A stretch of 64,000 bases of DNA. Source: Chrysomallon squamiferum (Eukaryota > Animalia > Mollusca). Below are positions 15,386 to 61,135 of this stretch, piece by piece. Below the pieces are notes generated by a model. The model searched no databases and had not been told where the DNA came from. It saw only the letters and a program-made list of their open reading frames with translations. The stretch is taken from positions 13,454,001 to 13,518,000 of the forward strand of contig CM022671.1 in NCBI GenBank assembly GCA_012295275.1. Reading direction: 5' to 3'. A program made the position numbers and the translations under genes. The stretch's first letter is position 1, and each line of letters opens with the position of its first letter.

Positions 15386-15430
<45 letters not shown>

Positions 15431-21400: not shown

Positions 21401-22258
21401 GTCTGATGTGTTAAGTTTTTCATTTTAACAAGTAACAGTTTTCTTCAGCTTTAAGATACTATATTAGAGCTAGTAAAGACTCTATTTTAATAATAAAGAT
21501 TACTTGCTGAGTGCCCTTTCTTTCAAAGCAGTTTGTAATGAGATTATATCAAGAACACGAAAACTGAATGGATAATGTACTTAAAAAAGTTGCATGCAGT
21601 TTATGGTAATGTGAATGTAAATAGAATTTAAATTTCACTTGGATAAGATTTAAGAAGTGACTTTGGAAAAAATGTTTTTTGGAGAGCCTGTTTGAATGTG
21701 GGAATGGACTTCATGAAGCAAATGACAAACAAAAGAGGCCACTGAACAGTGAAATTGTATTGAGTGATCTACTGTGTTATTTATTATGTATGTAGACTCC
21801 ATAATTTTTCCCACTGACATTAGTTAACCACATTTATTCCATCATCAATTCCATTATTTATTTTCAAGGCTTTGCCACAATTCACTGAACAATCAAATAA
21901 AAAGGTAAATACTACTGAATAAACAAATAGCAGAAACTGTATCACATAACTGTTAATGTTTTGCTTTTTAGGGCTTCCTCAACACAGCCTGTAAATAAAA
22001 TATTCTTGAGAAATGATGTGCTTAAATAATTTTGATCATTTATTAACCAAGATGGAGGCACTATAGACAATCCAATATCATTCCAAAGCAGATTTAATCA
22101 CTTAAATCATAATTAATGCAGTTAAATCAACATCTTATGAAAAGAATGGTTATTTTGCTAAACAACTAGAAACTTTCAAACATAATTCAAGAGGTTCTGG
22201 TTGAGGAAAATGAACATAATCAAATGTAATTAAAGGATCGTTCCAATGTAAACAATTA

Positions 22259-22312
<54 letters not shown>

Positions 22313-28124: not shown

Positions 28125-31100
28125 TTAGATGATTGGAAATGATTGCACTCCCATGCTTTCAAAAGCACACTCATCAACTCCTCGCAGGATTCTGAAATAA
28201 CCATCTTCTCCCCAGCCAGTACCCCAGCTGTTCTTTACAATCCAGTACTTATCTCCAGACACTCTGTCTACACCATAACCAACTAACAACACAGCATGGT
28301 TTGTCTGCTCAAAAGGGTTAAATGTATCTATAAGTTCAGTGTGCCGATAAACACCACTTCTGTAATGCTTGAAATCTGGGTAGACCTCAAAGCCAACTGC
28401 TATTGGTCCATACTTCACAAGGTTTATCATTAACACTGCTTCGTTGCATCTGGAAGTAAAATCTGATAAATCTTTCTGTTTGTTTTGAAATATTATGGAG
28501 GTAGCTTTGATTTCAAAAAATGTTCAGTACATGTTTCTCTGACAAATATGCACAATTCTGATAAATAATTTAATGTCTAAAGAAATAAATGGATGTTTTT
28601 TCTGTAAAGCAAATCTCTGTCTTGTGAAACAGACATAGGTGATTATATAATGCTAATAAAACATTTGAAATATTCTTTGGTTCTAGTTCAAACTGAGTTG
28701 CCATGTGTAATTAACCAGCACACATAACAAAAAATTGAAAATTTGTTTTTATATTTTAGTCCTAAAATCAATCCATTTTGGGAATTATATATACAAAATC
28801 TAACAGTTCATTAGAATTTCTAAAAACAAGCCCTATCCATAAACAGTAGATCTCCTTCTTCTAGTTCTATTATAGGACACACATATTTATCATTTTAAAA
28901 AAATGTGGAAGAACATACGCTCCATAGAATCCTCCAGTGTACTGATATTTGGTTGAATAATGTCTCTTGCAGCCTGGGTCAGTGGAACATTTGCTGTCTT
29001 GACCTTTGTATGGATTGCATTTTTCATTTACTAGTCCAAAATCTTCCGCATATTTTCCTCCAATGAGATATGGAAAACCTCCAGAACAGCCTAAATCATA
29101 TGATTAAAAATAATCTGAATAATAAATTATAGGAATATAATAATAATAATAAATGATTTAACAAGATCCATCAGTAACAGATAACAGATTAAATTTAATT
29201 TTGCTATAGCATTTTAATTATTCTATACTAATAATAGTTAATGTAAATATTATTTTATGATTACTTTTTCTTTTTCATATATTAGATTGTGGAGTGAAAC
29301 GTTTTTATATTTGATATTAAAATAGGAAACGAAAATTATATTATAAATATTAATTATGTAAATCATTTATTTATTACATTTACATCATTTTTTCTTATTG
29401 TACAACAATAATGAATGAAAATCTGTTTTGAACAATTACTGATACATTAAAACAGATTTAATTTATTTTGAAGAGTTACTGAATGGTTAATATAAATATT
29501 TATTTTACTTTTTATTTTGCCTCAGAATAAACAGAATTTATTTGAATAATGATGTTTATACCCTGTGAATATTCACTACATTCTACAATGTCTTGAGGTG
29601 AAAATACAGGTCTCTCTGTGTTGTTTGTCATAATCCTTACTCGAGCTTCATTCATTGCCATAGATGCAAAAGCATAACAACTGCCACAGGCTCCTGTAAT
29701 ATTAAAAATATTAAAACCTAATACTCTGATGCAAAGAAAATCATGTATAGTTATTTTCTATAAGTGGTACATCGATGGTTTTCTTATCAGGCCTTGCTAA
29801 AAGTGTTTTTATAAGTGACTTTATCAAGTCCATTGAATACATCTAATGATTTTTTACAATTTAGAAATTGTTTAAATTTTACATATTTGTTAATAAAATG
29901 TAATTAGTTTTGTGAAAAAAACAGTTTCTTTAAATGAAAATATTAATTTACATGAAGTCAAAACATACAATCAAAGAACAAACTGAATTCCTTTTAAAGA
30001 TGAATTTAATTAACTTTGTATCATTTAGAAATTGTTTACATTTTATGTATTTGTTAAGGAAAAACCTGTTATGTCTGTTTCTGAAAAATGCAGTATTTTT
30101 AAATTAAACTTTATTCATTGACATGATGTCAAAAGATGCAGAATTATTGATAAAGAACAGTTGAAATAAAATAAATGAATGATTAATGGCAACAAACCCT
30201 GATTTCTGACAGGAGATACAAATGAAATTCCGTGTTGATTTCTCCAATCAAAATTGTCTGGTAGCTGTTTCATTTTCATTTTGTCTTCTTCTGATACTGT
30301 TGCAGCCTTTGGAATTCTACAAAAACAAATATTTTTTTAAATTATTATTATTTTTAATTTTTGTATAAAGAACAGCAAAATTCAGTGTATATTAAAAATA
30401 CTAAACATGAGTGTCCTGACCAGTTAAAACTTTATGAGGTTTTTGGGAAGGGGATTTTATTTTGGAGGCATTTATTTATTTATTTATTTATTTATTTTTG
30501 AGCACACAGTAGAATTTTATAGAATTTTCAGAGATTTTCATATATGACTGCAAAGTTATCTGATAATCTTATGCCATTAAAATATACATAAATCATACAT
30601 TCAAATGTATGTGGCAACAAATAATTATTCTTACCCAACAACACGAGAGTTTCTGCCTCCAGCATGCTTAATTAGATCTTCTATGGACATTCCCTCATAT
30701 TCTGGATAAAATGTGGCTTTCCATGATGACTGGACTTTGTTTATTCCATTGATAAAATCTACACTCGTCTTGTACAAACTTGTTTGTGTTTAGTAGAATT
30801 TTTTTTTTTTTTTTTAAATGTCAATAATATTATGAATATATATAAACTTGAAATAAATGAAATTTTCAAAACATACATAAGGTATTGTATTTAATATTAA
30901 TATGCTGCTGTTCTCTTTTCAATTAAAACTCAATGGTTATTATTTTTACAATATTCAATTCTAATGAAAAAAAATCACTGCACTTCCCTGAAATTAATCA
31001 TATAAATTCCGCTAATGGATATTTCTCTATTATTAAGGTTGGTATAGGGAAATGAAAAACAAATTCCTAATGCATATTTATTAAAAATATTTTACATATT

Positions 31101-34100
31101 TTCTTATTAGAAAATAATTCGAGCAGAAGATTATTTTTTTCATTAATTTATTAAAATTAATAACATTAATATTATAAAAAACACATTTTATATTTAAATT
31201 TATTTTCTGTTAAATAAAATGATTAATAAAATATTACTGAAAAAGAAAAAAGGAAGAAAGGAAAGGTTTTATATAATGACATACTCAACACAATTTGTTT
31301 ATTGTTATATGTGTCAGACTTAAAATTATATATAACAATAGAAGAAACCAACTATAGCTACTTTATTATTAGCAGCAAACGATGTTTTACTCTGAATAGT
31401 ACAAATCACAGAATATGAAAAATAAAGAATGATAAGTGTATGAACATTTAACTACTTCACACTCACCTTGAATGATAAACTGCAACTGTATCAACATGAT
31501 GTTTAAAGAGATTTCTTGATTTGATCTTCACCCCCTGGTAACACGCCCAATCCCTGTCAAATATATCATGTGACCAGCCTGGAAAGGTTTCGCTACAAAT
31601 ACTAGTGACATTTTTGCCTGTCTTCTTATACTTAGAAAATGCAAAATACTTTCTATTGGTTACTACTACTTCAAAACCCTGAAGAACAAAAATAAAAAAA
31701 ATATTTTTTGGTTGTCTAAATTTATAAAAATGAATATTTTTGTTAAGAAAATTAAAACATGAAATTATTACTATCTTAGCTGAAAGTTTTAAAAGCATAT
31801 TGGACAGTTAGTTATAAATGAAATATTAAAGGTATTCATATACCTTACTGGTCTAATCAATGTTATGGTCAGACCGTACAAAATCAAGAAAGATAATTTT
31901 ATTATTTATATGATATTAATAATGCCTGGTCATTTATGTCAAATAAAAACAATTAACAATATGTGTCATATGTATGTGAGTGTGTGTTAGTTTTTTCTTC
32001 TGTATATGTGTGTTTCAAGGTAAATTTAATTCCAAGGACATAATATTCAGTATGTGCTCAGCTCCTATTTTTATGGTTACCAGTACTGTAATGTACATTT
32101 CTTGAAAAATGCACCATATATTTACTGACTACTCACATGTTTTGCAAACTTTTCAGCCTATATGACTTACACAAAAATCTTTATTTACTTTTTGGTTGGT
32201 TTTCTTATTTTGCTTTGTTCCATATGTCAGAAATGAATTTATATGGGAAACTGAAAAATCTAATACTCTAAATATATACTACTTAGCTATTAACTATAGC
32301 AATATGAATCATATAAAGAAAAGCAAAACTATTAATGAAATATACGATGAATGAGAGTCTCTCTGATAACCTACTTTACATTTGCAAATGAATGTTATTA
32401 AATTCGACACTTGTATAAAATATTATAATTGTGACACCATAATGAAAGAGGTATTTAATAGCAGTGTAATTATTACTTGAATATGAATAATAATTATGGA
32501 TAATAATAGATAATTTATTGGGTGTTTTTTATTATCCATAATTGGAGGGATTCAACTAAATCATCCACCACAGTATTTTATTGTAATAAGGATACATAAA
32601 CAGCACTAATGCATTCAAGTTTTATTTCTCTTTATTTGAACTTCAGATACTTGGGAAATTCCTCCAAGACACCTGTGACATTAATATATAGTAAACAGTG
32701 TCAATGGAGATATCTTAAAGACCCCAATACAAAAATGATCCATCAATATTGATCAGATAAGTCATCAGTCAGACTGTGTTGAATGATAGTACATTTATAT
32801 ATATATATACAGAGAGAAAGAGAAAGATAATATCTGGCAAGAAAGAAAGGTGCATACATAATTAGATATTTGCATATGTGTAAGTGTGGGGGATGTAGGA
32901 AAAAAATGGCACTGGAAAAAGGCATTATGCAAATTTGGAAAAAATGACACCCTACTTTATTTTCTCTGTAAAGTTGCATAAAAAAAACTTAAAAGTACTT
33001 TTGAAAATACAATTTATTCATGGAATATTGCTACTTATATATATATTAATATACAGCATCACTCAACTACTTGGTTTTGCTTAACGAAGTACAGTATTGT
33101 ATCAGAGTTTAATACTACAATTATCACATTATTATCACATTTAAAAATACAGTATACATAGCATCACTCCATCATTTGATTTTGTGTGTGTGTGTGTGTG
33201 GCGGAAGGTGCTAGACTTGGGTCTTACTCAGTGGCATGATGGATTCATTGGCTTTTCTTTCGATCGAAGATCTGCCAGTAGGCCTTGAGTTCCTTCCCAA
33301 CAATACACCAAAAGGGATGGAACCTTGAAGAATTCCTTCAAGGAGATGGTCACAACATCTGCTGGAAACCTCATGGTAACCAAAATCAAATGAAGGAGTG
33401 ATGCTCTGTATTTTTTATACTGTATTTTTAAATGTGATAATGATGCGATAATTGTAGTATTAAACTCTGATACAATACTGTACTTTGTTAAGCAAAACCA
33501 AGTAGCTGTGTGATGCTGTATATTAATATACATTTAAGTAGCTATACTGCATGAATAAATTATGTTTTCAAAAGTATTTTTAAGGTTTTCTGAACGCAAC
33601 TATACAGAAAAAATAAAGTAGGGTGTCATTTTTCCAAATTTGCATATGCCTTTTTCCAGTGCCCTTTTTCCCCCACATCCCCCCAGATACACACATATGC
33701 ACATATCTAATTATGTACAAAGACACATACACCAATAAAACACATATCTTAATTTAATTTGCAAACCTGATTGTAAATCAAAGTCCAAAAACCCTTGTTG
33801 CCATATTCATCTATGGCTAAATCAGGAAAATACAGCTGTATACTCAGAGTTGAAACGACTGGTGCTAAAACTTGTGTAAAAGACAAATTTAATATAACAA
33901 AGCTCTAACAGAATTTTAAATTATATGCATATGCATCTACCACATATATACGTAAGAAACTTCATCAGTTCATTGTAATATCTTTATCATGCTAGGATAA
34001 ATTTGTAAATATTATTGTTTTTTGGAAACAGCTTTTAATATATTATTCAGAAGATAATCAAGAACAACAATGGCAACAATACATTAACAATTACTAGTCA

Positions 34101-34384
34101 CTGTAACTGTGTAAGTGTTATTATTATTTTTATTAAAATTTGTGTTTATCAATGCATAAATCGTTATAATTATTAATTCAGTTTTATAAGTGACAAAGAA
34201 AGCTGCTATTACTTGGTAACTCACTCGTATTTGTACAACTGATATTTCTGTCGTGTCCCCTACTTCCTTCATAAAATGTCCACGATCCTACTATCTCTTC
34301 GTAAGTACAGTTTGCTGGTGTATCGCATAGAAATGGTAAAATATTTAAAGCTAACGTCTGCAGACAAAATATTAACAGTAACAT
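28125..34384 (-). CDS. CTSC: Cathepsin C (dipeptidyl peptidase I), 8 exons
   Basis: Exons (approx.): 34225-34384, 33767-33864, 31467-31678, 30635-30778, 30198-30317, 29562-29694, 28919-29091, 28125-28449. Signal peptide followed by DTPANC and the exclusion domain ([19 protein letters not shown]). The papain domain has [20 protein letters not shown] and KNSWG, so the catalytic Cys/His/Asn are intact. Confidence 0.97.
29858..30170. repeat. Diverged tandem duplication (~165-bp unit) in a CTSC intron
   Basis: ATTTAGAAATTGTTTA...TATTTGTTAA...GAAAAA...ACATGAxGTCAAAA...AAAGAACA occurs at ~29859 and ~30023. Confidence 0.65.
32855..33717. repeat. Long inverted repeat (~330-bp arms, ~195-bp spacer) in CTSC intron 2
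   Basis: 32855-33184 is the reverse complement of 33381-33717 with scattered mismatches, e.g. TACTTGGTTTTGCTTAACGAAGTACAGTATTGTATCAGAGTTTAATACTACAATTATC versus GATAATTGTAGTATTAAACTCTGATACAATACTGTACTTTGTTAAGCAAAACCAAGTA. Confidence 0.92.
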
Positions 34385-34860: not shown

Positions 34861-37800
34861 ATGTTTGCGTTTTTCCAAAGAATATTAGATTGGTTTAGAA
34901 GTCTTTTCTGGAAAGAAGAGATGGAATTAACTTTAGTAGGGTTGCAGTACTCAGGAAAGACCACATTTGTAAATGTTATTGCGGTAGGTCCCGAGTGCTT
35001 CCTACGAATCCTTTTATTTGTGACTTTGTCATACGATTTAACGTGACATCATCGTAAAACCGCTTAATACGCAGAAATCTTACATATACCTATATTTAAT
35101 GATTTTTTATATTTATTTTTTCACTGAAAATCATACAATTTCAAAATAATAATAATAATAATAATAATAATTTTATATATAATAATATACTATATAATAG
35201 TATATATAAAATAAAGATGACTATAGACCACTGGTTTTCAACCTTTTTCATACCGCGACTCCTTGTGAGCAACTCAATATGACCGATGACACCCTTTAAG
35301 AAAATTTATTCAATAATATCTAGGGCTACCATATTTTCATCAATCAAAGACAGTTCAAAAGGAATCTGTATTCACTATGACGGATCCCAAACCTATCTAC
35401 ACGTTTTTATTTATTCCTCCTTCCAAGAGCCTCGCTCAGTAATGATCTCACGACCCCCAGAAAAAAGGCTGACACCCTTCTGGGTGTTATGACCCATAGG
35501 TTGAAAACCTATGCTATAGACTAAATTAAATTTTAGGCAAAACTTCAAAAATATGTTATTTTCCTATAAATTTAAAGAGAAAGAGAGAGCCCCCCCCCCA
35601 AAAAAAAAAAAAATCCAGATTAAAATGACCTGGAGGTTTCTTTGATAACATAGAAGTTATAGGTTTTTATCAGAATAAATTTTGCTGGTATTTTTCTTTC
35701 AGAAACTGGAAGAATTAAGTTGTTTCAGTGATTTGGTTATATAAATATGTAGTTACAAACCAGTATACACATATACTGAAGCTTTTGATGAGGCATGAAG
35801 CTGCATAGTATTCTTAAAACTTTCTTCATAATGAATATTTTTATCAGAAAGAAGTATCTAAAAGTAGTAAACTGGAACATTATGCCACATAATTACTAAA
35901 TCATACAATAAAAATAAACGAATCATCATACTTGTTAGATATCCATAACAACTGCAGAGGCTATGGCTGAGAACACCACATATGCCACTAAGTGACTAAA
36001 TCATATTAAGTATCTGCTGCCTCACAAATCTGAATGAAATTTGGCAGACTGAGAGAAAGGCATTTAATATGCTGAATAAGCTTATCTTCACCACAGATGA
36101 TCAGTTTGAAACAGTAAGCTTGTCTGTTATTTGTCTGTAGTTTATCAATGATTATCTGTTAAGAAACAAATTCAAAAACAAATATGTATACTGTGTATAT
36201 ATGTATATATATTTGTAGTCCTGGAAAATATATAAATTTAATGACAAAACAGAAACTTGAATGAAGGAACCCACTTCAATAAAAGCAATTATGTGTCACA
36301 AAAACAGAGACAGCTGTTGTCATATACATACAAATTCAGAACAAAGGTACAGTTATGCAATATGTGATACAGATTTGTCTTTATAGACTATAGTACTGTG
36401 AATCTTATTTTAAGTATATGCTAGATTTAAAAATAGTATAATTAGGCAGAATATACAAGTACATCAGAAAAAGGTACTTTAAATGATATAATTCATAATT
36501 GAATAGAAATAATTAACAAATTAATAATTTAATTAATTTTGTAAACACCCTTTTATTAAATAAGGAATGCTATGTATCATATTTATTTATTTTTACCCAA
36601 ATTTAATTAGTAAAGTTGAGAATGTAAAAATTATCACGTTTTTAATGTTATTACCTCTTGTATGTAAAACATATTTAATAAATTTAATTGCTAGATATTT
36701 TAAATTATTTAACACACATACACACACTTAATTTTAATTAACATCTAGATATTGGTTAAACTATTACCTGTTGTGTTCAGTTATCTTACCTGCTTTGATT
36801 CACTGGAATGGAAATCTTGTATATCCACTTAGTTGGCGTATAATATAACCAATAGTAATTTCTGAGTTTGACCAGTTTTCAGTTAATTTTTACTAAAAAA
36901 TATAAAGTGTTTGTTTTGAATATTTCTATATAGCATATAAATGTGATATTTTGTTTAAAATTAGCTTTTTTTAAAAAGAAGGGTTAACTGATTTATAAAA
37001 TTTGAGTTTTAGTTTAATTTCATTTTTAGTTATTTTCTTTAACTATAATTTAATTTTCCTTCTGTAATTATTGTTTTTCAGTCGGGTCAGTTCAGTGAAG
37101 ATATGATTCCTACAGTTGGCTTTAATATGCGGAAGATTACTAAAGGAAATGTAACAATCAAGGTAATTTTTATATTGAGCACATTTACTGTATTTATGTG
37201 TATGTGTGTATATATATATAATTATATTTTTTATTTATTTTTACCCATCGGTCATAAATTAATCTGTACGCTTTTAGAGAAATATATTTCTTCACATAAA
37301 TTTAAATGTTACTTTTTAAAAATATTTTTTATTATTATTCTATTTTTAAAAATATTTTATGTGCTTTATAATTTTATTTTAATTTTTGTTTTAACTTAAA
37401 TAGTACCATTTGCAGTTTTCAAACAGTGTAAAATGATTATTTTTTATGATGTTTTATAACTCTTATAATTAATAAAAGATTTAATGCAGTAATGGATATA
37501 AATTAGAGAAATTACAGCAGTAATAATAATTAACATATGAACAATTTCACGTAGACGAATATTTGTTTATGTTTAGCTGTGGGACATTGGTGGCCAGCCT
37601 CGTTTCAGGAGCATGTGGGAACGATACTGCAGAGGTGTAAATGCTATAGTGTGAGTAAATTTCCATATTTATCTATTACTTCAATCCATAATACTAATTA
37701 TTAATTAAAAGATAATAGTTTAACATTAACTTCACTGTCCTTTATAGCAACTGACATAATCCATTCTAAATAGATTGCTGGTGTATAAAAAGCGACAAAA

Positions 37801-38622
37801 ATAATATTTAGTTTCTATGTAAAAACTACCAATAACAACCAAAAAAATGTTTTTAAATGTTTGGTGCATAACATTCATGATTTTTTTTTTACTTTAGATT
37901 TATGGTTGATGCAGCAGATCATGACAAACTGGAGGCATCCCGCAATGAGCTACACAACCTGCTTGATAAACCACAGCTGCAGGGCATTCCTGTACTTGTG
38001 TTGGGAAACAAAAGAGATTTATCTGAAGCACTTGATGAAAAGGAACTTATAGAGAGGATGTATGAAATATTATTACCTTTCTACCATTTGTATGTTTTGT
38101 TAAATTATATAAAATGATTCTAAAAGAACTGAACATTTTCAGGTGTTTGTTAAGAAGTCTGTAAATTACTGTAATGGCCATTATAAGAAATGTAAGAGTA
38201 ATTCTGCATGCTCATATATAATTACAACTACACAGGAATAACTGGTTACTTTCTTAAGATATAGTTTGTAAAAGTAAGAATTGCAAAATGCTCTGAACAT
38301 AACACAGTAAGACAGTAACCAGTTATTTCTTTTATCCCTCAATGCTAAATAATACAAACACTAAATTGTTTGAAACCAAATATTCATTTTGTTTTTACCT
38401 ACAAAAACTTCACATAAAAACAAAGTAGTTCTTAAATAACAACAATTTATTTTTCTTTTAAAGAACTAAACCAGCATTAAATGCTAAAGAAGTAACATTG
38501 AACAACATGTATATGTAAATAACCAATAATTTATTAAAGTAAAAATAATTCTGATCCTAAAAAGCTTTACTTTTGATTAGTGACTGAAATTATAGAAGTT
38601 TATCTAATGATCAGATCTTGCC

Positions 38623-38653
<31 letters not shown>

Positions 38654-40344
38654 TTGAAACTTGGATAGCTTGAGTGTTGATTTGTTGAGAACTTTGATCT
38701 GTTGAACTAAATGTCTTGTCCTGGCTCAGCTTCTGTAAAAGTCTGTAATATTTTGTAATAATGAGCTTCAAATAATCAAAATGTTAAAAAATTTCCTCAA
38801 AGTTGTATACTGACCAAAACTACTAATTTAATAGAAATTAACCTTTGAATGGTCAAGCTATTCTTTCCCTTGGTAAACATAGAACAATGGGTCTTTGATT
38901 AAGTGGGGAAAAAAATACATACCTTTACAGTATCTGTTTTCATAGTAGTTAAATGATAAAGTTCACTGATTGCCAATTAAATCCCTGTTAATGTTTACAC
39001 ATGTTTTAATCCGTGAATATTCATATTCACATTTGTGTGCAATTACAGACACTAATGAAAAACAATTAATTTAAAAAAAAAACATCTTTCATTACTAACT
39101 TTATTTTTTGTATAATGATATTTTGAACTGTTGGTTTCTATTGATAATTGATATATTTCTGGCAGAAATAATAATTGAAAGTATACTTGTATTAATTACC
39201 AATTTATACTGCTTTTCTTTTTCTTAGAAGTGTTTGTTATTTTGAATATTTGTCAAGTACAGCTAGTGCTATTAATATTTCAGTATGAACTGATTATGTT
39301 CAGTGAAGTTTAGAAATCAAAATCTGTTTTTTTTTTCTCTTTCATACATTAGTAAAGACATTTTCTTACACATTGATAAGCTACAAAGTTGTTAGGGTTT
39401 TTTTGTTTCATCTTTTATTTATTTTGTTTCCTTAGTTCACCAAATGTGCAATAGTATGTTTCGTGCAGTATTAAATGTACATCATTCTGCCATCAGTACC
39501 ACAGCAAATATTTGAAGTTTGAATATTCAAATACAATGAAATGTGAGCAGTTTTTGCTGACCCCTTCTATTTCAACATAACAAAGTTTGGTGTGTGTGTG
39601 TGTGTATGGATATATTTAGTTTTCTGCTTTTTACATTTTTATATTTGAAAAGATAACACAAAACAATGGAAAATATATTTTTTGGCATGACCTTGTTTCT
39701 TATTTTAATATCTGTCATATTCATTTATTAGAGAATCAGAAGAGTCATTGGAAAAGTTCAAGATGTGATTATATTTCCTTGGACCGTCAAAGTTTCATTT
39801 TAATAGCAGTTAGGATTTGTATTTTAAAAAATCACTAAACATGTGTTTTTATTTCAGGAATCTTTCAGCTATCCAGGACAGAGAAATATGTTGCTATTCG
39901 ATTTCATGCAAGGAAAAGGAAAATATAGGTAAAGGAATATATTTAAAAAGTGTAATCATTTATACTGATACACTAGCTCTCTAGATAATGTTTTATATTA
40001 ACACACTTTGTGAAGAAAATTTGCACACCAGTTATTTCTTGATTACTGTTAATAAACTTATAAAAAATTAAATTTAGTTATTTTAAAATATTTATGTATT
40101 ATTTTTGTGTTTCTTTATACTTATAATTTATTAATTTAAACTTGCTTATAATTTGAATTTTTTAAGGTATATGCAAATATGTAATTATTCAGTACAAAAA
40201 ATGAGTTTATGAAAGACTTATAAGTTTATAAATATGATTTATTAATTATTATAATTTTCTTTTTTCATTTTTGATCCTTTCTTCTTTTTTCACTTAGACA
40301 TAACTTTACAATGGTTGATACAGCATTCCAAGGGAGGTCACTAA
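34861..40344 (+). CDS. ARL8: ADP-ribosylation factor-like protein 8 (lysosomal small GTPase), 6 exons
   Basis: Exons 34861-34983, 37082-37162, 37577-37650, 37898-38059, 39858-39928, 40298-40344 give [35 protein letters not shown]...[12 protein letters not shown]...[20 protein letters not shown]...GNKRDL...[24 protein letters not shown]. This is the canonical ARL8 sequence, with no Gly2. Confidence 0.98.
35229..35513. mobile_element. hAT (Charlie-like) MITE in ARL8 intron 1
   Basis: TIRs CACTGGTTTTCAACC and GGTTGAAAACCTATG. Perfect 8-bp target-site duplication CTATAGAC at 35221-35228 and 35514-35521. Confidence 0.9.
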
Positions 40345-40904
40345 AAGTTATACTGGCATAACAGTTTCTGTATATTATGAATGACTCTTGTGAACATACA
40401 CTCACAGAAAGTATGAAATAAACTAAAGTACTCCTGCCATAGACTAAAACTGTTTTCGATATTGGCTGTGTGTTGTAGTCTTGGTAGTGAGTCGGTCAAT
40501 GAGTGAAATAATCACTCAGGTTAAAAAAGCTTTCTAGACAGGCTAAAATTTGACATTTTCTTTTGTCAGATTAAATTTTTTTGCAAGTTGTTTTTCTTTT
40601 TCTCAGCATGTGTCTGTGTGCATGTAACAGACTTGTGTGAACAGAATGTATATGAGTATAAATGTTAAATGTTTCATAATGATCTAAATTATGATTATTT
40701 TTCTGATAATTCATGGTACATACATACATGCATATATAGTTTATTTAGGTGACTTAAAAAAGTGTTGATCTAAAAATAATCATTTCAATAAGTCTCAGTT
40801 ATTAGATGAATTTTCTCTGTAGTATTCATATTTTGTCATTATACTTGGATGTTGCTTATAATTTATATATCTGTTGATTCATTGTATTCTATATAATACA
40901 CGTG

Positions 40905-44381: not shown

Positions 44382-44834
44382 TTATTCTTTTTTCTCTTCC
44401 TTGTGCCGGCATACAAGCACTGGAACGTGTGAATGGTGGATTATGTAGTCGCTGACGCTGCCCATCAAAGTTCGTCGGATTTGTCCAAGGCCTCTGGTTC
44501 CTGTTACAATCAATGTGGCGCCTTCTTCTTCTGCGACCTTCACGATTACCTCCCCTGGAGATCCACCCACACTCTTCACCTTTCCGCCAACCTGTAATTA
44601 TAACAGACTGATGTCTTTAATTTTAATTTCTTGATGTACGTCAAATGCACCACTTACAGATAAAGTAATTTACTCTGTACTGCACACGGCAAATATTATC
44701 AGTTTATTTCTTATGTTTATATTTTACAGTATTATTAAAACAAGTAAACAAACATTATTTTAACTAGGTAATTTAAAACAACACATTCTTAGATTCTATT
44801 TCATGAACTCAAAATCAAAATCATAATCAAAATC

Positions 44835-44867
<33 letters not shown>

Positions 44868-46926
44868 AATAATAAACTGATAAATGTTTCTACAGTTAAA
44901 TATTCTGATAAGCATAATTATATAAATGAAAATGATGAACATCTTTTGTTGTACATAGTATTATATTTTTGAAGTCAAAACATGAAATCCTACTTACTTT
45001 GTGCGATTTTAATTTCCTACCCAAAACCTCAAGATACTGTTTTATTTCTTTTTCTTCTTGCTGGAGCATATCAGTTACAACTGTGACGTCCGCCATTACC
45101 ATCGCTTTGTAAAATAAAATAACTTGTCACAAAATCATCTTTTTTAAAACACATCAACATCCATATACATAATTTCAAGTTTGTTCGAATATAATTATAT
45201 ACTGAGAATCAATTCTGTCACATGAAAATACAAAAAAAAAAGAAAAGAAACAATTATAATGAAATGAAATGATATTAGAACTATTATTACATGAATCTTT
45301 ACATTTTTTGTGTATATGTGGACAAACGTAATTTACTCCGAACCAGCATGCCCCATTTCGGTTACCTTCATAATATTTATCACTGGTAGGGAAGAAGTCT
45401 AAACTTCTGTCACTGGTGGTGTAAACGAAAATGGTGAGAAAATAAATAAAGTCTTCAAATTCCGGTTTTTATTAATCTTGAAGTGGGTTTATAAACATCT
45501 GTAACCAAAGTAACTAACAATTTATGTTATGACATATATCAATAATAATTTCTCCTTTATGTTTCATTGCTGGAATAACTAAGTCTTTTTATTTATTTAT
45601 TATTATTATTTTCAATATTTACAGATACTGCTTATGTAACGACTTATCTGCTTAACGACCGCGCGGACTCAGTCCGTATTGATGAGGAAATTTTGGCCAT
45701 TGAAAGACAGCTTGCTCTGATTAGCACGTTAATTTTTTACAGTTTAAGATTCGTTTAAACGCTGTCTGTATTTTTATGATTTGAAATTTGTGAGGCATGC
45801 AAATTAAAACAAAGTTAATACGATTTTGTATTTACAGTATCCAAACTTAAATAAAGTTTACTGGGCATATTCCTAAGTATTATAAATGATGCTGAGGTGA
45901 TATTAAAAAGGTATCTAAAGATAGTTGACATAAAACGACTACCGGTACTGCATGCTTGAAATACCGGTAATGGGCAGCTTCTCACTTATCGACCAGTTTG
46001 ATCAACACCTACCCATTTACATATACACACAAATTTTAATTTTAACTAGTAATCTGTGCGTTTGTTTTCAAGAATAACAGTATAAAAGTTTAAGACATCT
46101 GTCCTTCACAAATGGTGAATGAGACTGTTCGAAAAGCCACACCAGAAATTTCTGTCAAATTTCAATCATCGTGCATTTGTCTTTTATTTTGCTATTACTA
46201 ATATAAAAAAATTATAATTTTCAAGAAACCTGCTATAATTTCCCATTTCAAACGTGCCAAAAATACAACACTGTATCCGGTGAAAGTGTTAGCAAATTTG
46301 GCCGTTTCAGTTTGTTTGTTGTTTAATTGTACCAGTTTTAATGAAACAGTTAAAAGTGTTCATTTAAATCAAATATTTGTTTCCACGTGCTTGTGAATGT
46401 AGTTATCTCCACATGAATAGACACACACGAACTTTGACCTGCCAATGGTCGTTAACAATACTCACGTGACTGGATGATAGCATGATACTCGGGACTGTGC
46501 AGTAAGATGATATGGTCACCGGACTTGTAGACGTTATCCATGTACCCTGGAATGTGGAAGAAAGACAATAAACCTATCTACTGTGATTGCACATACTCAC
46601 GAGCTTGCATGGTGATACTCTGAAATTCGGGAACGTAAACCAAGATTATGTGATCATTCGATCGGTGTATTTCTTTGAGAAAGTCTGAAACAAATAAAGG
46701 TGCACTTGAGACTGGGAAATTCTGGGATACTCCTCATCCAACGATTTAATGTGAACATTATTATTGTTCCATAGCTTATTTAATTATTCATGTATTTAAC
46801 ACTAATATAAACGTTAGCAAAGGGGGGGGGGGCGTATTCTTTATATATACACTACTCTGTTAATTTTGTTTCATTGTGATAGCTTGACCTCGCTGATAAC
46901 TGAAATTCATTATTCAATCCCTGAAA

Positions 46927-46968
<42 letters not shown>

Positions 46969-49671
46969 CAACAAACAACAAAAATTCATAAGAAATTAAA
47001 ATAAATAAATAAATAAATAATAAAGCTGCCTCCACCCTGTAATTTGCTTATACATATTTTGCTCCTTTTCTTTCTTTTCTTTTCCTTTTTATTTATTCTT
47101 GTTCATTAACAAAGGTTAATTAATACTGAACATAGATAATACCCTAATATGCATTCACACACTCACACACATACAAACACACAGTGAAACAACAAAAAAA
47201 ACATAAAGAAAGACTCGGCGTGGAATTCGCACAGTAATAATAGCTTGGCACAGATGAAATATGAAGAAATGTAATTTAGTATTTAGCACACACTGCCGCG
47301 TGTTTGTCAATACACTTAGCTAAATAATGATATAATTACATTAACTCAATACTGAGCATGCCCTATTTTCCGAAAGCACTGAAGACAGACCTATCGGATT
47401 AATTCAATGAATTCCTAAAATGTTTAGTGAATATGTTGATTTATTGTGTATATTATGTATACTTTAAGATTTAACTCTTAATTTTTTTCATCAGTTTTCG
47501 TTGATTTTTTTGTTTTTCTTTATGTTTTCTTGGTTATTATGATCGCAAAGACAATGTGTACACATTATATACTCAGTAACAACACGTTTCACGAATTTAT
47601 GAACTTACTGATAAATAACGTTTTAGTTGTCTCACACACACACACACACACACGCGCGCGCGCTATTTGTAAAAATAAAAACGGAAAAGACAAAGCTTTT
47701 TCAGATCGAAAATATCATATTTCTAAATAAACTTGTTGTTTTCTTTTTGACGAAGCGGAAGTATTCATTTTCATAAGATATAACATTACTCTAGAACTGA
47801 TTTATAATTATTTGAACTTGCCAAAGAAGAATATATGATCGTTTTGATACAGTCTGTAAATTATTTGACAGCCTTCATTAAAATATACTTTCGTTGATCC
47901 AACGCGGTCTGACAGCCCGATTATGGCTCGTAACATAGTAACACAATAAAATAATTCTGCTACAAATGAACCGCCATTTTACTCCATAATTGGAGTTGTG
48001 AAGTCATTACGTATGAAGCAGACTGGTGGGTGTATTAGTTTTATTTATTTATTTATTTTTAGACGTAACTAGAGGAAAATTTGGAGAGCCCTGTCTGTAT
48101 TCATTTAATATTAATATAGATTATTAAAACTGGATGGCACAAGAAAAAAAAAAAAAAAAAAAAAGAAAAAATGGATGACATATGATATAAAAACAAGACC
48201 ACTGCTGCATATTTACCGGTAAATATGATTTTCAAATAATAGTGTATCTCAGGTGTTCGTGTTTATGGGATGTGAAATATTTTCCAACATTCTGGTTTGC
48301 TTGTAATGTCTAAAAGGCCATTGTGGAAAAACTAAAGAGAAAAGAAATTTAATAGAATAAATAACAGAAGCAAAAAGCAATAATGTTATTATTCCTCTGC
48401 TGTGATTGACTTATGAGCTAAGAAAGGAAAATGGTGTTGACAATATTCATACATAAGAGCAAAAATAATTAACAATCAGCTTATTCTAATTTATGAATGA
48501 TAACGGCCACTAGGGGCGCTCGCTACCATTTTTTTCAGAAATGACGAACCTCAAAATGTTATGCTAATTTATTACATGCTTTAAACCAGAATGAGATCAA
48601 ATATCAGTTTATTTTGTTTGGCGAATTTCTTATAACGACGTAACTGAAAACCTGAAACTAAAATTAAAAAGATTATTAGATAAAAATGACAACCGAACGT
48701 TGCGGAAAAAATCGAAAAAAACGAAACAGTCGATTAGTTGAATAGATTATTTAAATGGAACATTTAATCTTCTTTTACATTCTGCCTTTTATTTGACAAA
48801 TTACTCCTGTATTTATTGTTTAACAGCCATTTGAAATGAAGCTACTGTGCCCTATTATTCATGAAAAATAACCCCTCACGAACGACAGCTCTCACTCAGG
48901 CATGATCTCACGTTCATATATCTATTGAAACAGGCCTAAAACATAGTATTTCATTCAGTTAAATCTATCTCTGTTAAGATTATTATAAAGAGGACACTTT
49001 ACTGTATAGAACATGCAATTTTAGTAAAGATATCTCTTGAAATAAAGTTTTTGTGACTTAATTACGGTAGACTTATTTTTCTTCAAAACTTTAAAAATAC
49101 TTGTATTCGGAGTGTGGATTTTTTACAAATTAGAAATACGATTTTTTTCATTTTTTAACATATCAATTAAATCTTTTAGTTTTTCTTCTTCTTTCTTTCT
49201 TTTTTTTTTTTTTTTTTATATCTGAGATTGAATGTCTTTCGATTCATATAAAAAACATCTTTATTTGACAATAACAAAAAAATGCGTTAGACATTTCCTA
49301 TTGAATTTTTTAAAACTTGTTGCGCGATATAATTATATGTTAACATGAATGAATCAATTATTATTTTTTACATACATATATAGCTAAAACTTCTGACAAA
49401 CAAAAATAAATAAATAAAGTAAGATAAAAGTGTTATTCTGGCAACATTGGCTGAACAGCATTTTCCAATACTAAATGAACGGTTTAGAGCATTTACGGTA
49501 ACTACGAGACTAAAACGTGCAAGGTCCACATATTAAAAAGGATGAAATGTACGGTAACTGTTTTACTTATTACACGTTACAGTATTACTCACATTCAAAA
49601 GCATAGTCCGAATATTCACTGCGGTCCATTGCAATTACAATAGTCCGGTCTCTTTTAGCTGTATCAGCCAT
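44382..49671 (-). CDS. Universal stress protein (UspA domain) with two alternative versions of exon 2
   Basis: Exons 49593-49671, [46601-46684 or 46466-46546], 44998-45104, 44382-44591 give [46 protein letters not shown]...[51 protein letters not shown]. The USP ATP-binding motif G-2x-G-9x-G(S/T) is present. Confidence 0.93.
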
Positions 49672-50994: not shown

Positions 50995-51673
50995 GCTTGC
51001 AACTCAATTTGCTTGTATATCTAATAAATTTTTCCAACTGAAATTAATTGAAAGACCATTAATCTGCTCCACCCCCAAAAACAATCCCATATTTTATTTA
51101 TTTATTTATTTTTTGTAACGTGTTTTTAAATAAGAAAAAATTATTTATAAATGACAAATATTGTTAAAAAAACAAAATATAAGAGAATGTACACAAATAA
51201 ATTGGTTTTGTAAAATGTATTTATCTTGGAGATCAGATTATTTTAACGCCTTTGGCTGGAGTTACACCCTTTATCGACTCCTTCGGCTTCAGTATGGTAC
51301 ATATCATAGAAGTACTACACTCATACTGCCTAGCCAAGATGACTACATGCACACCTTGCTCATGTTTTTCTATTAATTCAAGCTTTAATTCAATAGACAT
51401 TATTCACTTCTTAATCTCAGCACTGTCCTTTGCACTCACTTTCTTAAGATCCGTGAAAATTTGGCAAAATACGGCACAAAATGCAAGCAAAATGCAACAG
51501 AAATGTTTCCGCGACCATGTAACCACGTGAAGTAAACGAGTGAGATGAAGGATGCTGGCCGGATGTGTTGTTCTGAAGCTCGCTCGTAACTCGGATTTCG
51601 GCTCGCAACTCAAAGCAAAATCGCCCAGGCAAATGCTCATAACTCGAAAAACTCTTAAATCGAGGTACCACTG
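50995..51673 (-). mobile_element. Tigger/pogo-family element, copy 2 (left TIR lost)
   Basis: Colinear with 4500-5218, sharing TTTGGCTGGAGTTA, CTTCAGTATGGTACATAT and GGCTCGCAACTCAAAGCAAAA. The right TIR GAGGTACCACTG plus TA is intact. Confidence 0.85.
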
Positions 51674-53876
51674 TATACTAAAAATATTATAAATGGTACA
51701 AAGGTGACATTAAAACAGTAAATGGTTGACCATACCTGCTAACAGTATAGTATTCTTGAAATATCTTAAGGGGTGGCTTTTCACTTTAGACTAATTCATT
51801 GAACAACCTAATTTTACGAAAGGAACTTTGTTGTTATGTGAAAAATGCCTGTGTATGCACATGCTTGTAATTATAAAACGGTATATATATATATAAGTGT
51901 GACAGACATGCTGGTTGCTGCTCCATTATCTTTGTACAAAACTTGTACAACAGTGATCAGCTTGGGATGAGCATTCAGCCAAATACCTAAACGTTTATGT
52001 TAGCACACTCAAATTGTAGAGCATTGATAAATTAACATATGAAGTTTATATACATTTATATTTTTATTATTATTTGTATTTTTCTAAAAATCAGATTATA
52101 AATTTATTTATTTATTTATTTATTATTTTTTTAAATCAGTAGATAAGTCTTTATATATTTAAACATTTATCTGTTGGCAAAACACTTAATATTTCATATT
52201 GTTGTGTTCTATAATAATAATAATAATAATAATAATGTAAGCTTTTAACAGTTCTCTGCATGTTATTAATAAAGAGATAACGAATTCTTAATTATTGTCA
52301 CACAAATAGTTCCTAAAATATACAATATTTATAAAAAGAACATAAATACATACATTCAACTGTTATCATTTTTAAAAAATGACCAGAAAGTAAACAACAC
52401 TCCATCCCAATAAAAATATGTATATTTAAGTAGTTACAGTATCCAAAACACGTTCTGAAAAAAAACACCCCAAAAACCCTAAAAAGAAATTATAAAGAAT
52501 ATCTCTCCCGTCTTAAAAAAAAAAAAAAAAAAAATTCCCCAACACAATAGCAGCAAAAAAATAATAGAAATATGAATTCCTGCAACAATAAGGATAAAAA
52601 CAAAATGAACTGTTAAGTGTGGTTTAAAGAACTGAATTAAGAAAAACAAAGCAGAAAATAAATATAATATGTTATTGCACATATAAAATACTTAAATAAA
52701 TTGTTGATTATTTATTGTTGGCCCATTCTAGGCAGATTCTCCTTCTACTGTAAAGAATTTCTTTTAAAATGCAAAGGATATTGAAATGCATCATATATTA
52801 ATGATTTAGTAGATGAAAATATATGATCTGTGATTTTTGATAATACACTTAATTATTAACAACAATAAAATAATAATGGTCATTTCTTAAAAACATTTGA
52901 GGGGATCTTTGGTTTTTTGATAGGTTGTAACATAAAATTCAAGTAAAACAATGGGTGCTTAAATGCTGTGGTATTACATTTTTCCAGCAAAAGTTTTTCA
53001 CCTTATTCTTGAACTAACTGCAATATATGTAAACAGTAATTGTTTATAATCTTCCAAGATCACTGTAAAAACCGTTTCAAAGTTTTATTATTAAAATGTA
53101 TAAGTGCTGTAATATAAAGCCTGTGATTCATTACTTATTATCAGTGTAGGCCAAAATATCTGAGATTTAATAATGTTGATATTCACTAATCATAGCTACA
53201 ACAGCAATACCTGGCTTACCTTTTACTGGATGTTTCATATCAAATTCATAGTATAAGAACTGCTTGCCATTTTCATATTCACAAATTTGGTTTTAAACTA
53301 ATTTTTTAATGATACCTATACCTAGTATTTTATTTCATTTCATTCACTAACAATATATGACTTTTAGTACAGTCTTCATCTCTTTAACCTGTTTTCCTAG
53401 ATTCACCAGCAAACTGACAAAACATTCTTATGTTGTTTCCATAATCACTGATATTTCCAATTGTAAGTATGTCTGACTTAGTATTCTTAAGAGGACAGGC
53501 TATGTAAAAAAGACAAAATCTGAATAAACAAAATTGTTTTTTTGTTTCAGGTGTTTTCGCAAAAGGAAGTGCACATAAAAAGATTAAACAATGCATAGCA
53601 TCACCCCTTTATCCATAATAAGTGGAAATATGGTTTAAAAAACTCCATTTTATGTTGTTTTTTATTTTTATTTTTTTGTTATCACCTATCTTTTTTTTTG
53701 TACTATCCTAATGGTGTATGAAAACTATTTGTGCTACAATTTCCAAATTTGGAATATTAGAAAATTTAAACATTAAAATTTTAAACATTAAAAAATGACA
53801 GAAATAAAATCTTTCAAAAAAAAATCTTTTGAAGTGTGTAAACAAAGACTAATTTATTTCTGTTATTTTGTAGAAG

Positions 53877-58044: not shown

Positions 58045-60699
58045 TTAAATAGTTTCTATCAGTCTTTGAGGTGTTTTTCGAGCACGTCTAGGATATCTTG
58101 GGGTAGACGGTATTGGTAGTTGCGGTACATCGTCAACAGTATCGTCGATGGCATTAGAAGCATCCTCTACGGCATTAGAAGTAACCGTTCTATTTTCGAT
58201 CTCAGTCTCTTCCACCTGAACAGTTGGTTCAACAAATTCCATTTCAGACTCCGTACCAATTGCAGACAGTTCTGGGAACGGGTTCCTATTATCCTCCAAA
58301 TGCACACATTTACGAAGTTGATCCACATGTCTTTTACACACAAAATCTCCAATTTTCACTCTGTAGGTAACAGGCCCTAGCTGACACAGTACTTTTCCAC
58401 TCAACCACTTGTCAGATCCTCTGTAGTTCCTCACTTGTACTGAATCTCCAACATTGAACACCCGTGTTTTACTTGCTTTTGGAATAGTTCTTTTTTTAAC
58501 AGAGTTCTCCAAACTTGGACGCAAAATATCCAATCTCGTTCGAACACGTCTGCCAAGAAACAATTCTGATGGAGTACATTTTGTAGTACAGTGTGGAGTG
58601 TTCCGATACGCAAACAAGAATGATGAAATCTTCTGGTTCATGGTTCGTGACTCATGTTCAACTGTTTTCATTGCAGTTTTGAAAGTACGAACAGCTCTTT
58701 CTGCCTCACCATTTGAACTTGGATGGTATGGAGCTGATTTGATGTGTTTCACTCCATTTTTCTTAAGAAATGTTTCAAATTCCTCTGCAACAAACTGAGG
58801 TCCATTATCAGAAATCAACTGCTCTGGCATTCCATAACTTGCAAAGAGATTTCTCAATGTCTCTACTGCATGCGTTGCTCTGGTACTGGACATTCGAAAA
58901 ACTTCCATCCATTTAGAATGTGCATCCACCACAATCATGAACATTTCTTTCATAAATGATCCAGCAAAATCAACATGTATTCTTTGCCATGGTTTGGTGG
59001 GCCAAATCCATGCATTAGCTGTACTTTTTGGCATGACTGTTTGTTGTAGTTGGCAACACTTACACTTGCTAACTTTCTTTTCTATGTCAATATCCATATG
59101 AGGCCACCACACATGCAATCTAGCCAAAGATTTCATTCGCACAATTCCAGGATGATTTTCATGAAGATAATACAGAATATCTGTTCGATATTTATCGGGA
59201 ATAATCACTCGCATTCCTCTGAGAAGACAGTTTTCCTCCACGGTTAATTCATCTTTCACTCTGAAATAAGGTAACAGCTCTGGTGAAATAGAAGACTCTT
59301 CTGGCCATCCATACATGTTATAATGTACAACCCGAGATAATACTTTGTCAACTGCAGTTGCTTTAGCAATATTTCTTGCAGTGATAGGTAATCCATTGAC
59401 TTGATTTCTCATTGCTTGCTTGTCTTCATGCCAAAACACACTTTCAGATATTTCTTCAGTTTGCAGAAGTGGTAGTCGGGACAGTGCATCAGCATTTCCA
59501 TTTTTGGTGGTTTTTCTGTATTTAATGTCAAACTGATATGCGGCTAACTGAATAGCCCAACGCTGTAGTCGAGAGGCTGTCAGAACTGGAATATTCTTTT
59601 TAGGTCCAAGAATCATTGTCAGTGGTTTATGATCTGTGAACAAAGTAAATCTTCTACCATACAGGTACTGATGGAACTTGTGTATTCCAAAAATTATTGC
59701 CAGTGCTTCTTTCTCAATTTGGGAATACTTGCGTTCTGTGGATGTCAGAGTTCTAGAAGCGTATGCTATTGGCCTATCTGATCCTTCATTTCCATGTGAT
59801 ATTACCGCTCCAAGACCATGCGCAGATGCATCTACTGCCAACATTACTGGTTTCATTGGGTCATAGTGCACAAGAATTTTAGATGATGCTAACAGTTTTC
59901 CCACTTTGGAAAATGCTTGCTGACAATCATCACTCCATTTCCACTCTGTATCTTTGGTTAACAACGCTGTTAGCGGTGCCACCACTGTTGACATGTTGGG
60001 TACAAACTTGCGATAGTAATTCACAATACCTAACCAAGATTGCAACTCACTCTTGTTCTTAGGTTCAGGCACTTTCAGAATAGCTTCAACTTTTCTTTCA
60101 GAAGGTTGAATCCCATTTTTGTTCACAATAAATGCAAAGTACTCAACTTCATCTTTCATCAATGCACATTTTGACCTTTTCAGTTGAATTCCATATTTTT
60201 CTAGGCGTTTCAAAGTGTTTTTCAAATGTTTCAAGTGTTCAGTGTCATCCTTTCCAGTGACTATGATGTCATCCAAAATGTAACCTACACCTTTTAGCCC
60301 TTGAAGCACTTTGTCCATAGTTTGTTGAAAAATAGCAGGTGCTGCAGCAACTCCAAATGGCAACCTTGTATAGCGATAAAGTCCAAGGTGAGTATTGATT
60401 GTGACATAGTTCCTCGACTGTTCATCAAGCAACACTTGCTGGTATGCATGTGACAAATCCAGTTTGGAGAACTTTTGTCCTCCATTGAGTTTGCTGAAAA
60501 TGTCTTCTGCAGTGGGCAAAGGGTACTCAGGCACTTCCAACACAGGATTTATGGTAACCTTGTAATCGCCACAAATGCGAATGGTATTGTCAGGTTTTAA
60601 ATCAGGTACAATAGGAGAAGCCCATTCAGAAAAATCTACCTTTTCTAGAATTCCTTCTGCTTCAAGTCTGTGAAGTTCATCAGCTATCTTTTCCTTCAA
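58045..60699 (-). CDS. pol: Gypsy pol polyprotein (RT - RNase H - integrase), N-terminally truncated
   Basis: 884-aa open frame. RT: WASPIV, RICGDYK, KLDLSHAYQQ, RLPFG, ILDD. RNase H: DAS, EKEALA, TDHKPL, NADALSR. Integrase: HENH...CKCC, HVDFAG, SDNGPQF, NGEAER. Confidence 0.95.
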   Translation of the reverse strand: MKEKIADELHRLEAEGILEKVDFSEWASPIVPDLKPDNTIRICGDYKVTINPVLEVPEYPLPTAEDIFSKLNGGQKFSKLDLSHAYQQVLLDEQSRNYVTINTHLGLYRYTRLPFGVAAAPAIFQQTMDKVLQGLKGVGYILDDIIVTGKDDTEHLKHLKNTLKRLEKYGIQLKRSKCALMKDEVEYFAFIVNKNGIQPSERKVEAILKVPEPKNKSELQSWLGIVNYYRKFVPNMSTVVAPLTALLTKDTEWKWSDDCQQAFSKVGKLLASSKILVHYDPMKPVMLAVDASAHGLGAVISHGNEGSDRPIAYASRTLTSTERKYSQIEKEALAIIFGIHKFHQYLYGRRFTLFTDHKPLTMILGPKKNIPVLTASRLQRWAIQLAAYQFDIKYRKTTKNGNADALSRLPLLQTEEISESVFWHEDKQAMRNQVNGLPITARNIAKATAVDKVLSRVVHYNMYGWPEESSISPELLPYFRVKDELTVEENCLLRGMRVIIPDKYRTDILYYLHENHPGIVRMKSLARLHVWWPHMDIDIEKKVSKCKCCQLQQTVMPKSTANAWIWPTKPWQRIHVDFAGSFMKEMFMIVVDAHSKWMEVFRMSSTRATHAVETLRNLFASYGMPEQLISDNGPQFVAEEFETFLKKNGVKHIKSAPYHPSSNGEAERAVRTFKTAMKTVEHESRTMNQKISSFLFAYRNTPHCTTKCTPSELFLGRRVRTRLDILRPSLENSVKKRTIPKASKTRVFNVGDSVQVRNYRGSDKWLSGKVLCQLGPVTYRVKIGDFVCKRHVDQLRKCVHLEDNRNPFPELSAIGTESEMEFVEPTVQVEETEIENRTVTSNAVEDASNAIDDTVDDVPQLPIPSTPRYPRRARKTPQRLIETI

Positions 60700-61135
60700 A
60701 GCATAAGGTACTGGTCTAGCCTTGAAAAACTTTGGAGTAACATTATTGATGTCTCTTCCATTTAAAATTTAAGAAAATTAAGTTTCATAATACCCCTGAT
60801 TTTCATTTCTCCTTGCCAGCAGTTGGAATTATATATGTTGCTTTTGAGATTATGATACAAAGTGCTAATATAAATTAAATAATTGTAACTGTTTATTCTA
60901 TTTTTCAGTAGTTTCTTTTATTATAAATAAATACAAATGAAGTTTAAAACATTGATACAAGTGATTTATTTATTAACTCAGTCTGGTTTGACTTTTTGAA
61001 TCAGTTGTTTCGTAATTGGTGCAATTTTAATCATAAAAATAAAATTAATGTATTAATTACAGCTATTATTTAGATTAAAGACTGCTATCAGTAAGTTCCT
61101 TGTTTTCTTTTTTTAATTATCGTAAATCAACTCTA

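Follow-up and report, generated by a model that had tools for sequence, protein, structure and literature searches.

Tandem homologous exons in a Chrysomallon squamiferum universal stress protein gene and their counterparts in isoforms of Gigantopelta aegis

A universal stress protein (USP) gene in Chrysomallon squamiferum carries two homologous copies of its second exon, here called 2a and 2b. In the RNA examined it is 2b that is spliced; exon 2a likely serves as the minor partner of a mutually exclusive pair, maintained by selection, a reading to which we give a probability of about 0.7. The anatomy of the gene, the mRNA containing 2b and the same exon swap in gene models of a relative, Gigantopelta aegis, are observed; we infer the use of 2a in C. 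squamiferum from its conservation and from the G. aegis X1 model.

Anatomy and conservation of the exon pair

The gene lies on the minus strand of the window, by which we mean the whole 64-kb stretch of DNA analysed. The coding part of exon 1 (49593-49671) runs from the ATG to a phase-1 GTGAGT donor and encodes strand β-1, with Asp16, and most of helix 1. Intron 1 extends for 2,908 nt as far as the 2a acceptor (46685-49592) and is followed by exon 2a (46601-46684, 84 nt), a 54-nt spacer (46547-46600) and exon 2b (46466-46546, 81 nt). Exon 3 (44998-45104, 107 nt) encodes the long helix 2, and the coding part of exon 4 (44382-44591) supplies the G-2x-G-9x-GS ATP-binding motif and the stop codon, with a match to Pfam Usp at an E value of 2.9e-20. 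A sequence-only reading had drawn the exon pair with these coordinates and lengths, with CAG acceptors, GTGAGT donors, phase 1-1, no stops and a 54-nt spacer, and each of these details was confirmed. Being adjacent, homologous, of the same phase and of nearly equal length, 2a and 2b belong to the class of tandem-duplicated exons. Inclusion of 2a alone or 2b alone yields a full USP of 159 or 158 aa, and the frame is likewise kept, without a stop, when both exons are included (186 aa) or neither is (131 aa). Since no combination disrupts the frame or brings in a stop, exclusion cannot be enforced by nonsense-mediated decay. A tblastn search of the window detected no second USP gene.

The two exons have diverged strongly from each other. 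Their peptides share 10 of 26 residues and their nucleotides 39-43 of 78, the range being set by gap placement; synonymous sites are saturated (pS 0.73-0.91) and pN is 0.35-0.40. That this likeness is more than chance follows from G. aegis, in which each exon has its own counterpart in isoforms X1 and X2, and the proposed tandem duplication is upheld. These isoforms, XP_041350432.1 (X1) and XP_041350433.1 (X2), bear consecutive accessions and are the two best of 111 matches; their first 26 and last 105 residues are identical and the exon-2 segment is their sole difference. The G. aegis gene is the orthologue of the window gene (90% identity over 117 constitutive columns; support of 100/98 for the two together), with the same swapped segment and the same one-residue difference in length between isoforms. 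Window 2a is identical to X1 at 18 of 27 residues and window 2b to X2 at 21 of 26. In an exon tree of 46 rows and 27 columns, from which 11 distant rows were left out, the 2a exons of the two species group together (support 98/92), as do the 2b exons (99/92), indicating that the pair is older than the split between C. squamiferum and G. aegis. RefSeq isoform models usually rest on RNA alignments; the G. aegis pair is known solely as automated RefSeq protein models. At the level of those models, in which X1 carries 2a and X2 carries 2b, either/or use of the exons is borne out, and so is conservation of both exons in a relative, which the sequence-only reading had put forward as a check.

Elsewhere among molluscs a single exon of the 2b type prevails. 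Each of 28 other close mollusc homologues has one exon-2 peptide, mostly 2b-like, in protein records in which second exons could be unannotated, and all three metagenome loci have a lone exon with 2b boundaries and no second copy in the 360-1740 nt upstream or the roughly 670-1060 nt downstream. Together these observations identify 2b as the ancestral-type exon. When G. aegis 2a served as the query of a region search, the single candidate (1/1) was that sequence itself, and no further 2a-type protein was present among 51 sequences taken from lists that included the best 120 of 154 matches of a word-based, insensitive profile search. A screen of 232 proteins for isoform pairs likewise gave no further 2a-type protein and no partner with double inclusion of 2a and 2b.

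Window 2a has 16 residues in common with the single exon-2 segment of an Octopus orthologue (P0148), more than the 10 that it has in common with window 2b, a likeness to Octopus that is probably convergence. Approximately unbiased (AU) tests on the 27 columns rejected none of seven groupings, among them 2a with the octopod clade (p 0.45), 2a with 2b (p 0.12) and window 2a with window 2b (p 0.13). In a neighbouring Haliotis paralogue (P0009, P0010 and P0234 versus P0018 and P0116; consecutive accessions) the end of exon 2 is 2a-like, and the best tree places 2a with the Haliotis 'MQA' paralogue at weak support (77/91). Capture of 2a from a neighbouring paralogue is possible but unsupported: exon 1 is slightly nearer the direct orthologue (12 of 18 versus 10 of 18 residues), and the AU tests reject no grouping.

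Constraint, transcripts and splicing of exons 2a and 2b

We assessed constraint on 2a against a profile of mollusc exon-2 peptides. In simulations that start from present-day sequences and disallow indels, 2b was decayed neutrally to matched identity, and 0 of 28,351 stop-free copies attained the profile score of 2a (76.2, compared with a mean of 26.8 and a maximum of 67.3 for the copies); 11 of 14,543 drifted copies of window 2a attained the score of G. aegis 2a. Asp37, Pro45 and Glu46, which do not vary in any of the 28 homologues, are present in both 2a peptides, and 2a has kept its frame, its canonical splice sites and its length of 27 codons, the same in both species. The earlier suggestion of selection on both exons thus survives, since 2a beats simulated neutral decay and holds the invariant columns, with a weaker constraint on 2a. 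The path length between the two species is 0.76 for 2a, 0.28 for 2b and 0.12 for the constitutive exons, corresponding to a rate for 2a about 3-fold that of 2b and about 6-fold that of the shared exons, and the 2a peptides (76.2 and 74.8) score at or just below the bottom of the range of the 28 homologues (minimum 76.8). A BLOSUM-only test on the nine 2a differences was not significant (1,772 of 14,543), and the survival of 2a fits neutrality if the neutral distance is merely 0.1-0.2 (P 0.40-0.10). From these comparisons we read 2a as probably a functional exon under looser constraint than 2b.

RNA was represented by four runs from a single study, as contigs; a fifth run, X5, also covers the stretch. 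Joints between exon 1 and 2b, between 2b and exon 3 and between exon 3 and exon 4 were found in four of four runs, the first of them also supporting exon 1. Among the joints listed for these contigs of one study there was none with 2a, none between 2a and 2b and none between exon 1 and exon 3. Closer re-alignment of three runs and X5 revealed loose ends at the two ends of 2b alone, matching exon 3 and exon 1. Exon 2b is therefore the form shown in RNA. Contigs drop rare variants and so cannot show the absence of a joint, and because contig depth cannot rank parts of a gene, contig cover over 2a carries no evidential weight. That cover includes one contig of run X1 that crosses 2a and the spacer, from upstream into 2b, with nothing spliced out, and one contig of run X4 whose end coincides with the 2a donor (46601) and is not loose; 2a is uncovered in run X3, and run X2 is uncovered in the bin 46613-46813. 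Run X5, possibly the source sample, covers both exons in a DNA-like manner. We also ruled out a cryptic acceptor at 46920, as the unaligned contig ends there fall in a skipped repeat. Intronic stretches at about 45707-45738 and 49402-49418 are common to many unrelated RNA contigs, as loose ends, which suggests that they are dispersed repeats.

The short spacer makes steric exclusion of 2a and 2b plausible. A motif scan predicts one YTNAY branch site in the spacer, the A of which sits at +32 counting from the 2a donor and at 23 nt counting back from the 3′ end; no AG lies between this predicted branch A and the 2b acceptor, and the spacer adenines before the last 8 nt are all at +46 or less. 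The predicted donor-to-branch distance is thus below about 50 nt, a recognised steric criterion from vertebrate work (PMC5740500, PMC7969005), with a threshold for interference that PMC5740500 reports for 9% of human clusters. With the predicted 2b branch point only about 32 nt from the 2a donor, U1 and U2 could not both assemble on the spacer, and 2a and 2b would not be joined. Frame and decay would not police the choice, double inclusion being in frame, and 2b would win by default through its stronger acceptor. The 2b acceptor has 17 pyrimidines in 20 nt, compared with 14 for 2a, and no competing AG, whereas the 2a acceptor has three AGs within 40 nt upstream (at -22, -29 and -39, with no YTNAY from -12 to -67), differences that fit 2b as the default. 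α-Tropomyosin, α-actinin and OGDH 4a/4b likewise have homologous neighbouring exons and a donor-to-branch distance below 50 nt, a distance that is predicted in our case; those three genes use distant branch points, whereas in the window gene the whole intron is 54 nt and the branch candidate is normally placed (PMC7969005). The steric reading is weakened by the median intron of 57 bp in the spiralian Capitella (bioRxiv 2020.05.07.078311) and by the vertebrate derivation of the 50-nt threshold. Within the window, 25 other introns from four genes, hand-mapped with open reading confirmed, measure 187 to 3046 nt, a small sample in which hand mapping could miss very short introns. We found no RNA structure over the exon pair (z +1.55), and the 25 longest of 171 inverted repeats were all low-complexity or chance-like. 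How short an intron a gastropod can still splice could be tested cleanly on this spacer.

The swapped segment in the USP fold and competing readings

Predicted models of both G. aegis isoforms adopt the USP fold with β-2 intact (pLDDT 83.7 and 82.1), and 1MJH is the top structural match for both. In these models exon 2 corresponds to the end of helix 1, strand β-2 (38-43) and a low-confidence loop, agreeing with the placement originally proposed from sequence. The protein shows the features of ATP-binding USPs: the domain (Pfam on exon 4) and fold (in the models of the G. aegis isoforms), the G-2x-G-9x-G(S/T) motif in exon 4 and equivalents of Asp13 (Asp16, exon 1) and Val41 (Val or Ser44, exon 2). 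MJ0577-type USPs (PF00582; 1MJH, 2GM3) have the same fold, an Asp at the end of β-1, Val or Ser at the end of β-2 and G-2x-G-9x-GS; the window USP, known from sequence, is about 27-29% identical to 1MJH. Flatworm and Hydra USP genes are mostly intronless according to PMC5793430, whereas the window gene has four exons. The residue following Asp16 (exon 1, window 49593-49671) is Arg in both C. squamiferum and G. aegis but Gly or Glu in most homologues; it adjoins the nucleotide site and is common to both isoforms.

The sequence-only reading had also envisaged a swap of nucleotide-pocket residues, LLHS against LVYV. Part of this stands: at residue 44, which aligns with MJ0577 Val41, 2a has Val and 2b has Ser in C. 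squamiferum and G. aegis alike. The His/Tyr part is not kept, as G. aegis 2a has His where window 2a has Tyr, and the idea is weak overall because both Val and Ser position adenine and Val and Tyr are common in single-exon homologues. At residue 44 the 28 homologues have Cys in 13, Val in 11, Thr in 3 and Ser in 1, and at the His/Tyr column 7 of 28 have Tyr. A true ligand switch, with the Ser and Val isoforms preferring different nucleotides or only one of them binding ATP, could draw on the listing of MJ0577 Val41 as ATP-related in Table 1 of PMC3673472, on the Val/Ser difference kept in both species and on a Val/Cys difference in a Haliotis isoform pair described below. We nonetheless consider it improbable. 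The same paper describes USP adenine as positioned by either Val or Ser and finds Val, Ser and Ala all at this site in USPs solved with adenine nucleotides; the single-exon homologues vary there; Asp16 and the entire G-2x-G-9x-GS motif reside in the shared exons; and human duplicated exons retain 80.6% of ligand residues, as given in PMC9741552. The variability of the pocket, the shared Asp16 and phosphate motif and the human retention figure make fine-tuning of surface or affinity likelier than a change of nucleotide specificity. The two isoforms made by the gene would then share fold and ATP motif, and both would probably bind adenine nucleotides. They would differ at the end of helix 1, at the Ser or Val that adjoins the adenine and in the flexible loop following β-2, which is longer by one residue in 2a. 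The most likely effect of the swap is to adjust affinity or surface interactions in some tissue or state.

Fine-tuning by two isoforms presupposes that both exons are used, one at a time. If 2a was once functional and is now rarely or never used in C. squamiferum, it would be decaying in a gene that is effectively 2b-only, in keeping with the exclusive listing of 2b joints in all four RNA runs, the roughly threefold faster rate of 2a, its weaker acceptor context and its GC content of 0.39, which 12% of intronic 84-mers equal. Such decay is unlikely, given that 2a retains its frame, its 27 codons in both species, its splice sites and Asp37, Pro45 and Glu46, that the profile tests reject neutral drift and that the G. 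aegis X1 model carries 2a; rare variants, moreover, drop out of contigs. Strict exclusion could also fail, with 2a acting as a cassette exon joinable to 2b to give a longer protein, or spacing may not be what achieves exclusion. Including both exons keeps the frame and introduces no stop, and introns near 57 bp are ordinary in Capitella (bioRxiv 2020.05.07.078311), yet the four RNA runs list no 2a-2b joint, the 232 proteins contain no double-inclusion partner, the other mapped introns of the window are at least 187 nt and inclusion of both exons would be expected to duplicate a core strand. We regard this last alternative as very improbable and favour mutually exclusive use, with 2a as the minor form.

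Exon swaps in other mollusc USPs and further features of the window

The same segment is swapped in a different USP paralogue at five loci in four Haliotis species, as RefSeq isoform pairs (P0161/P0168, P0169/P0216, P0217/P0221, P0172/P0223 and P0222/P0226). These pairs came from the screen of 232 proteins, which sought pairs with identical ends, and the species were assigned from names and accession series. In a pair such as XP_071093686.1/XP_071093687.1 the exchanged segment is that of the window gene; the Haliotis gene belongs to a separate gastropod paralogue clade (99/97), its variants are of equal length and they are known from proteins alone. At the position of residue 44 the Haliotis variants have Val and Cys. 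Several of the pairs also vary by one residue just after the segment, in a tandem-acceptor-like manner. In the free exon tree both Haliotis variants stay with their own clade (97/88), which favours independent duplication; AU tests, however, did not reject a common origin of 2a and Haliotis A (p 0.53), nor a grouping of Haliotis A with B (p 0.42) or of 2a with both Haliotis groups (p 0.23).

Splicing also alters the adjoining loop. Micro-exon insertions at the exon 2/3 junction are present in Mya, Ruditapes, Mercenaria, oysters and another G. aegis USP, and RefSeq isoform pairs of bivalve orthologues and other paralogues have 6-17 residues inserted there; the spread of these insertions across bivalves and paralogues marks the loop as a recurrent splicing target. 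One Biomphalaria USP isoform is without the exon-2 segment. Mollusc isoforms with insertions at the junction or without exon 2 comprise P0004/P0112, P0011/P0113, P0022/P0115, P0043-P0051, P0060/P0063 and P0098/P0099. Taken with the bivalve micro-exons, the swap in the abalone paralogue suggests that this region of the fold has been adjusted again and again in molluscs. A bolder view, which we offer as a tentative conjecture, is that mutually exclusive pairs arose from this USP exon on two or more occasions among gastropods, in the paralogue of this lineage and in that of abalones, each time with a Val variant against a Ser or Cys one at the adenine-contact position, as a recurrent regulated switch of nucleotide affinity or partner binding.

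This mode of splicing is well known, and the exon pair is already present in the automated RefSeq annotation of G. aegis; the Haliotis swap of the same segment is new here and is the most interesting addition. A search of openly accessible literature, supplements aside, found no paper on a mutually exclusive exon pair in a USP, and in a term search 'USP', 'splic' and 'isoform' were absent from the main text of the G. aegis genome paper (PMC7895826); novelty could be affected by isoform tables in the supplements of the genome papers on the snails and abalones. For USPs in animals few functions are known, and two naturally occurring isoforms that are alike except in the strand and loop next to the adenine pocket provide a ready-made comparison for the role of that region.

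Several other features were noted in the window. A cathepsin C gene (28125-34357, minus strand) and an Arf-family gene (34861-40350, plus strand), which we take to be ARL8-like, stand head to head about 500 nt apart. The plus strand also carries a PIRC1/2 exon (11588-11860) and a multi-exon gene with a C-terminal WH2 motif (14779-24216), presumably PXK/Slob-like. Two similar degenerate frames (4860-5174 and 51201-51709) are likely copies of a dispersed repeat or transposon remnant, and on the minus strand 58045-60768 holds an uninterrupted 907-aa pol frame of an LTR retrotransposon, with reverse transcriptase (RT), RNase H and integrase.
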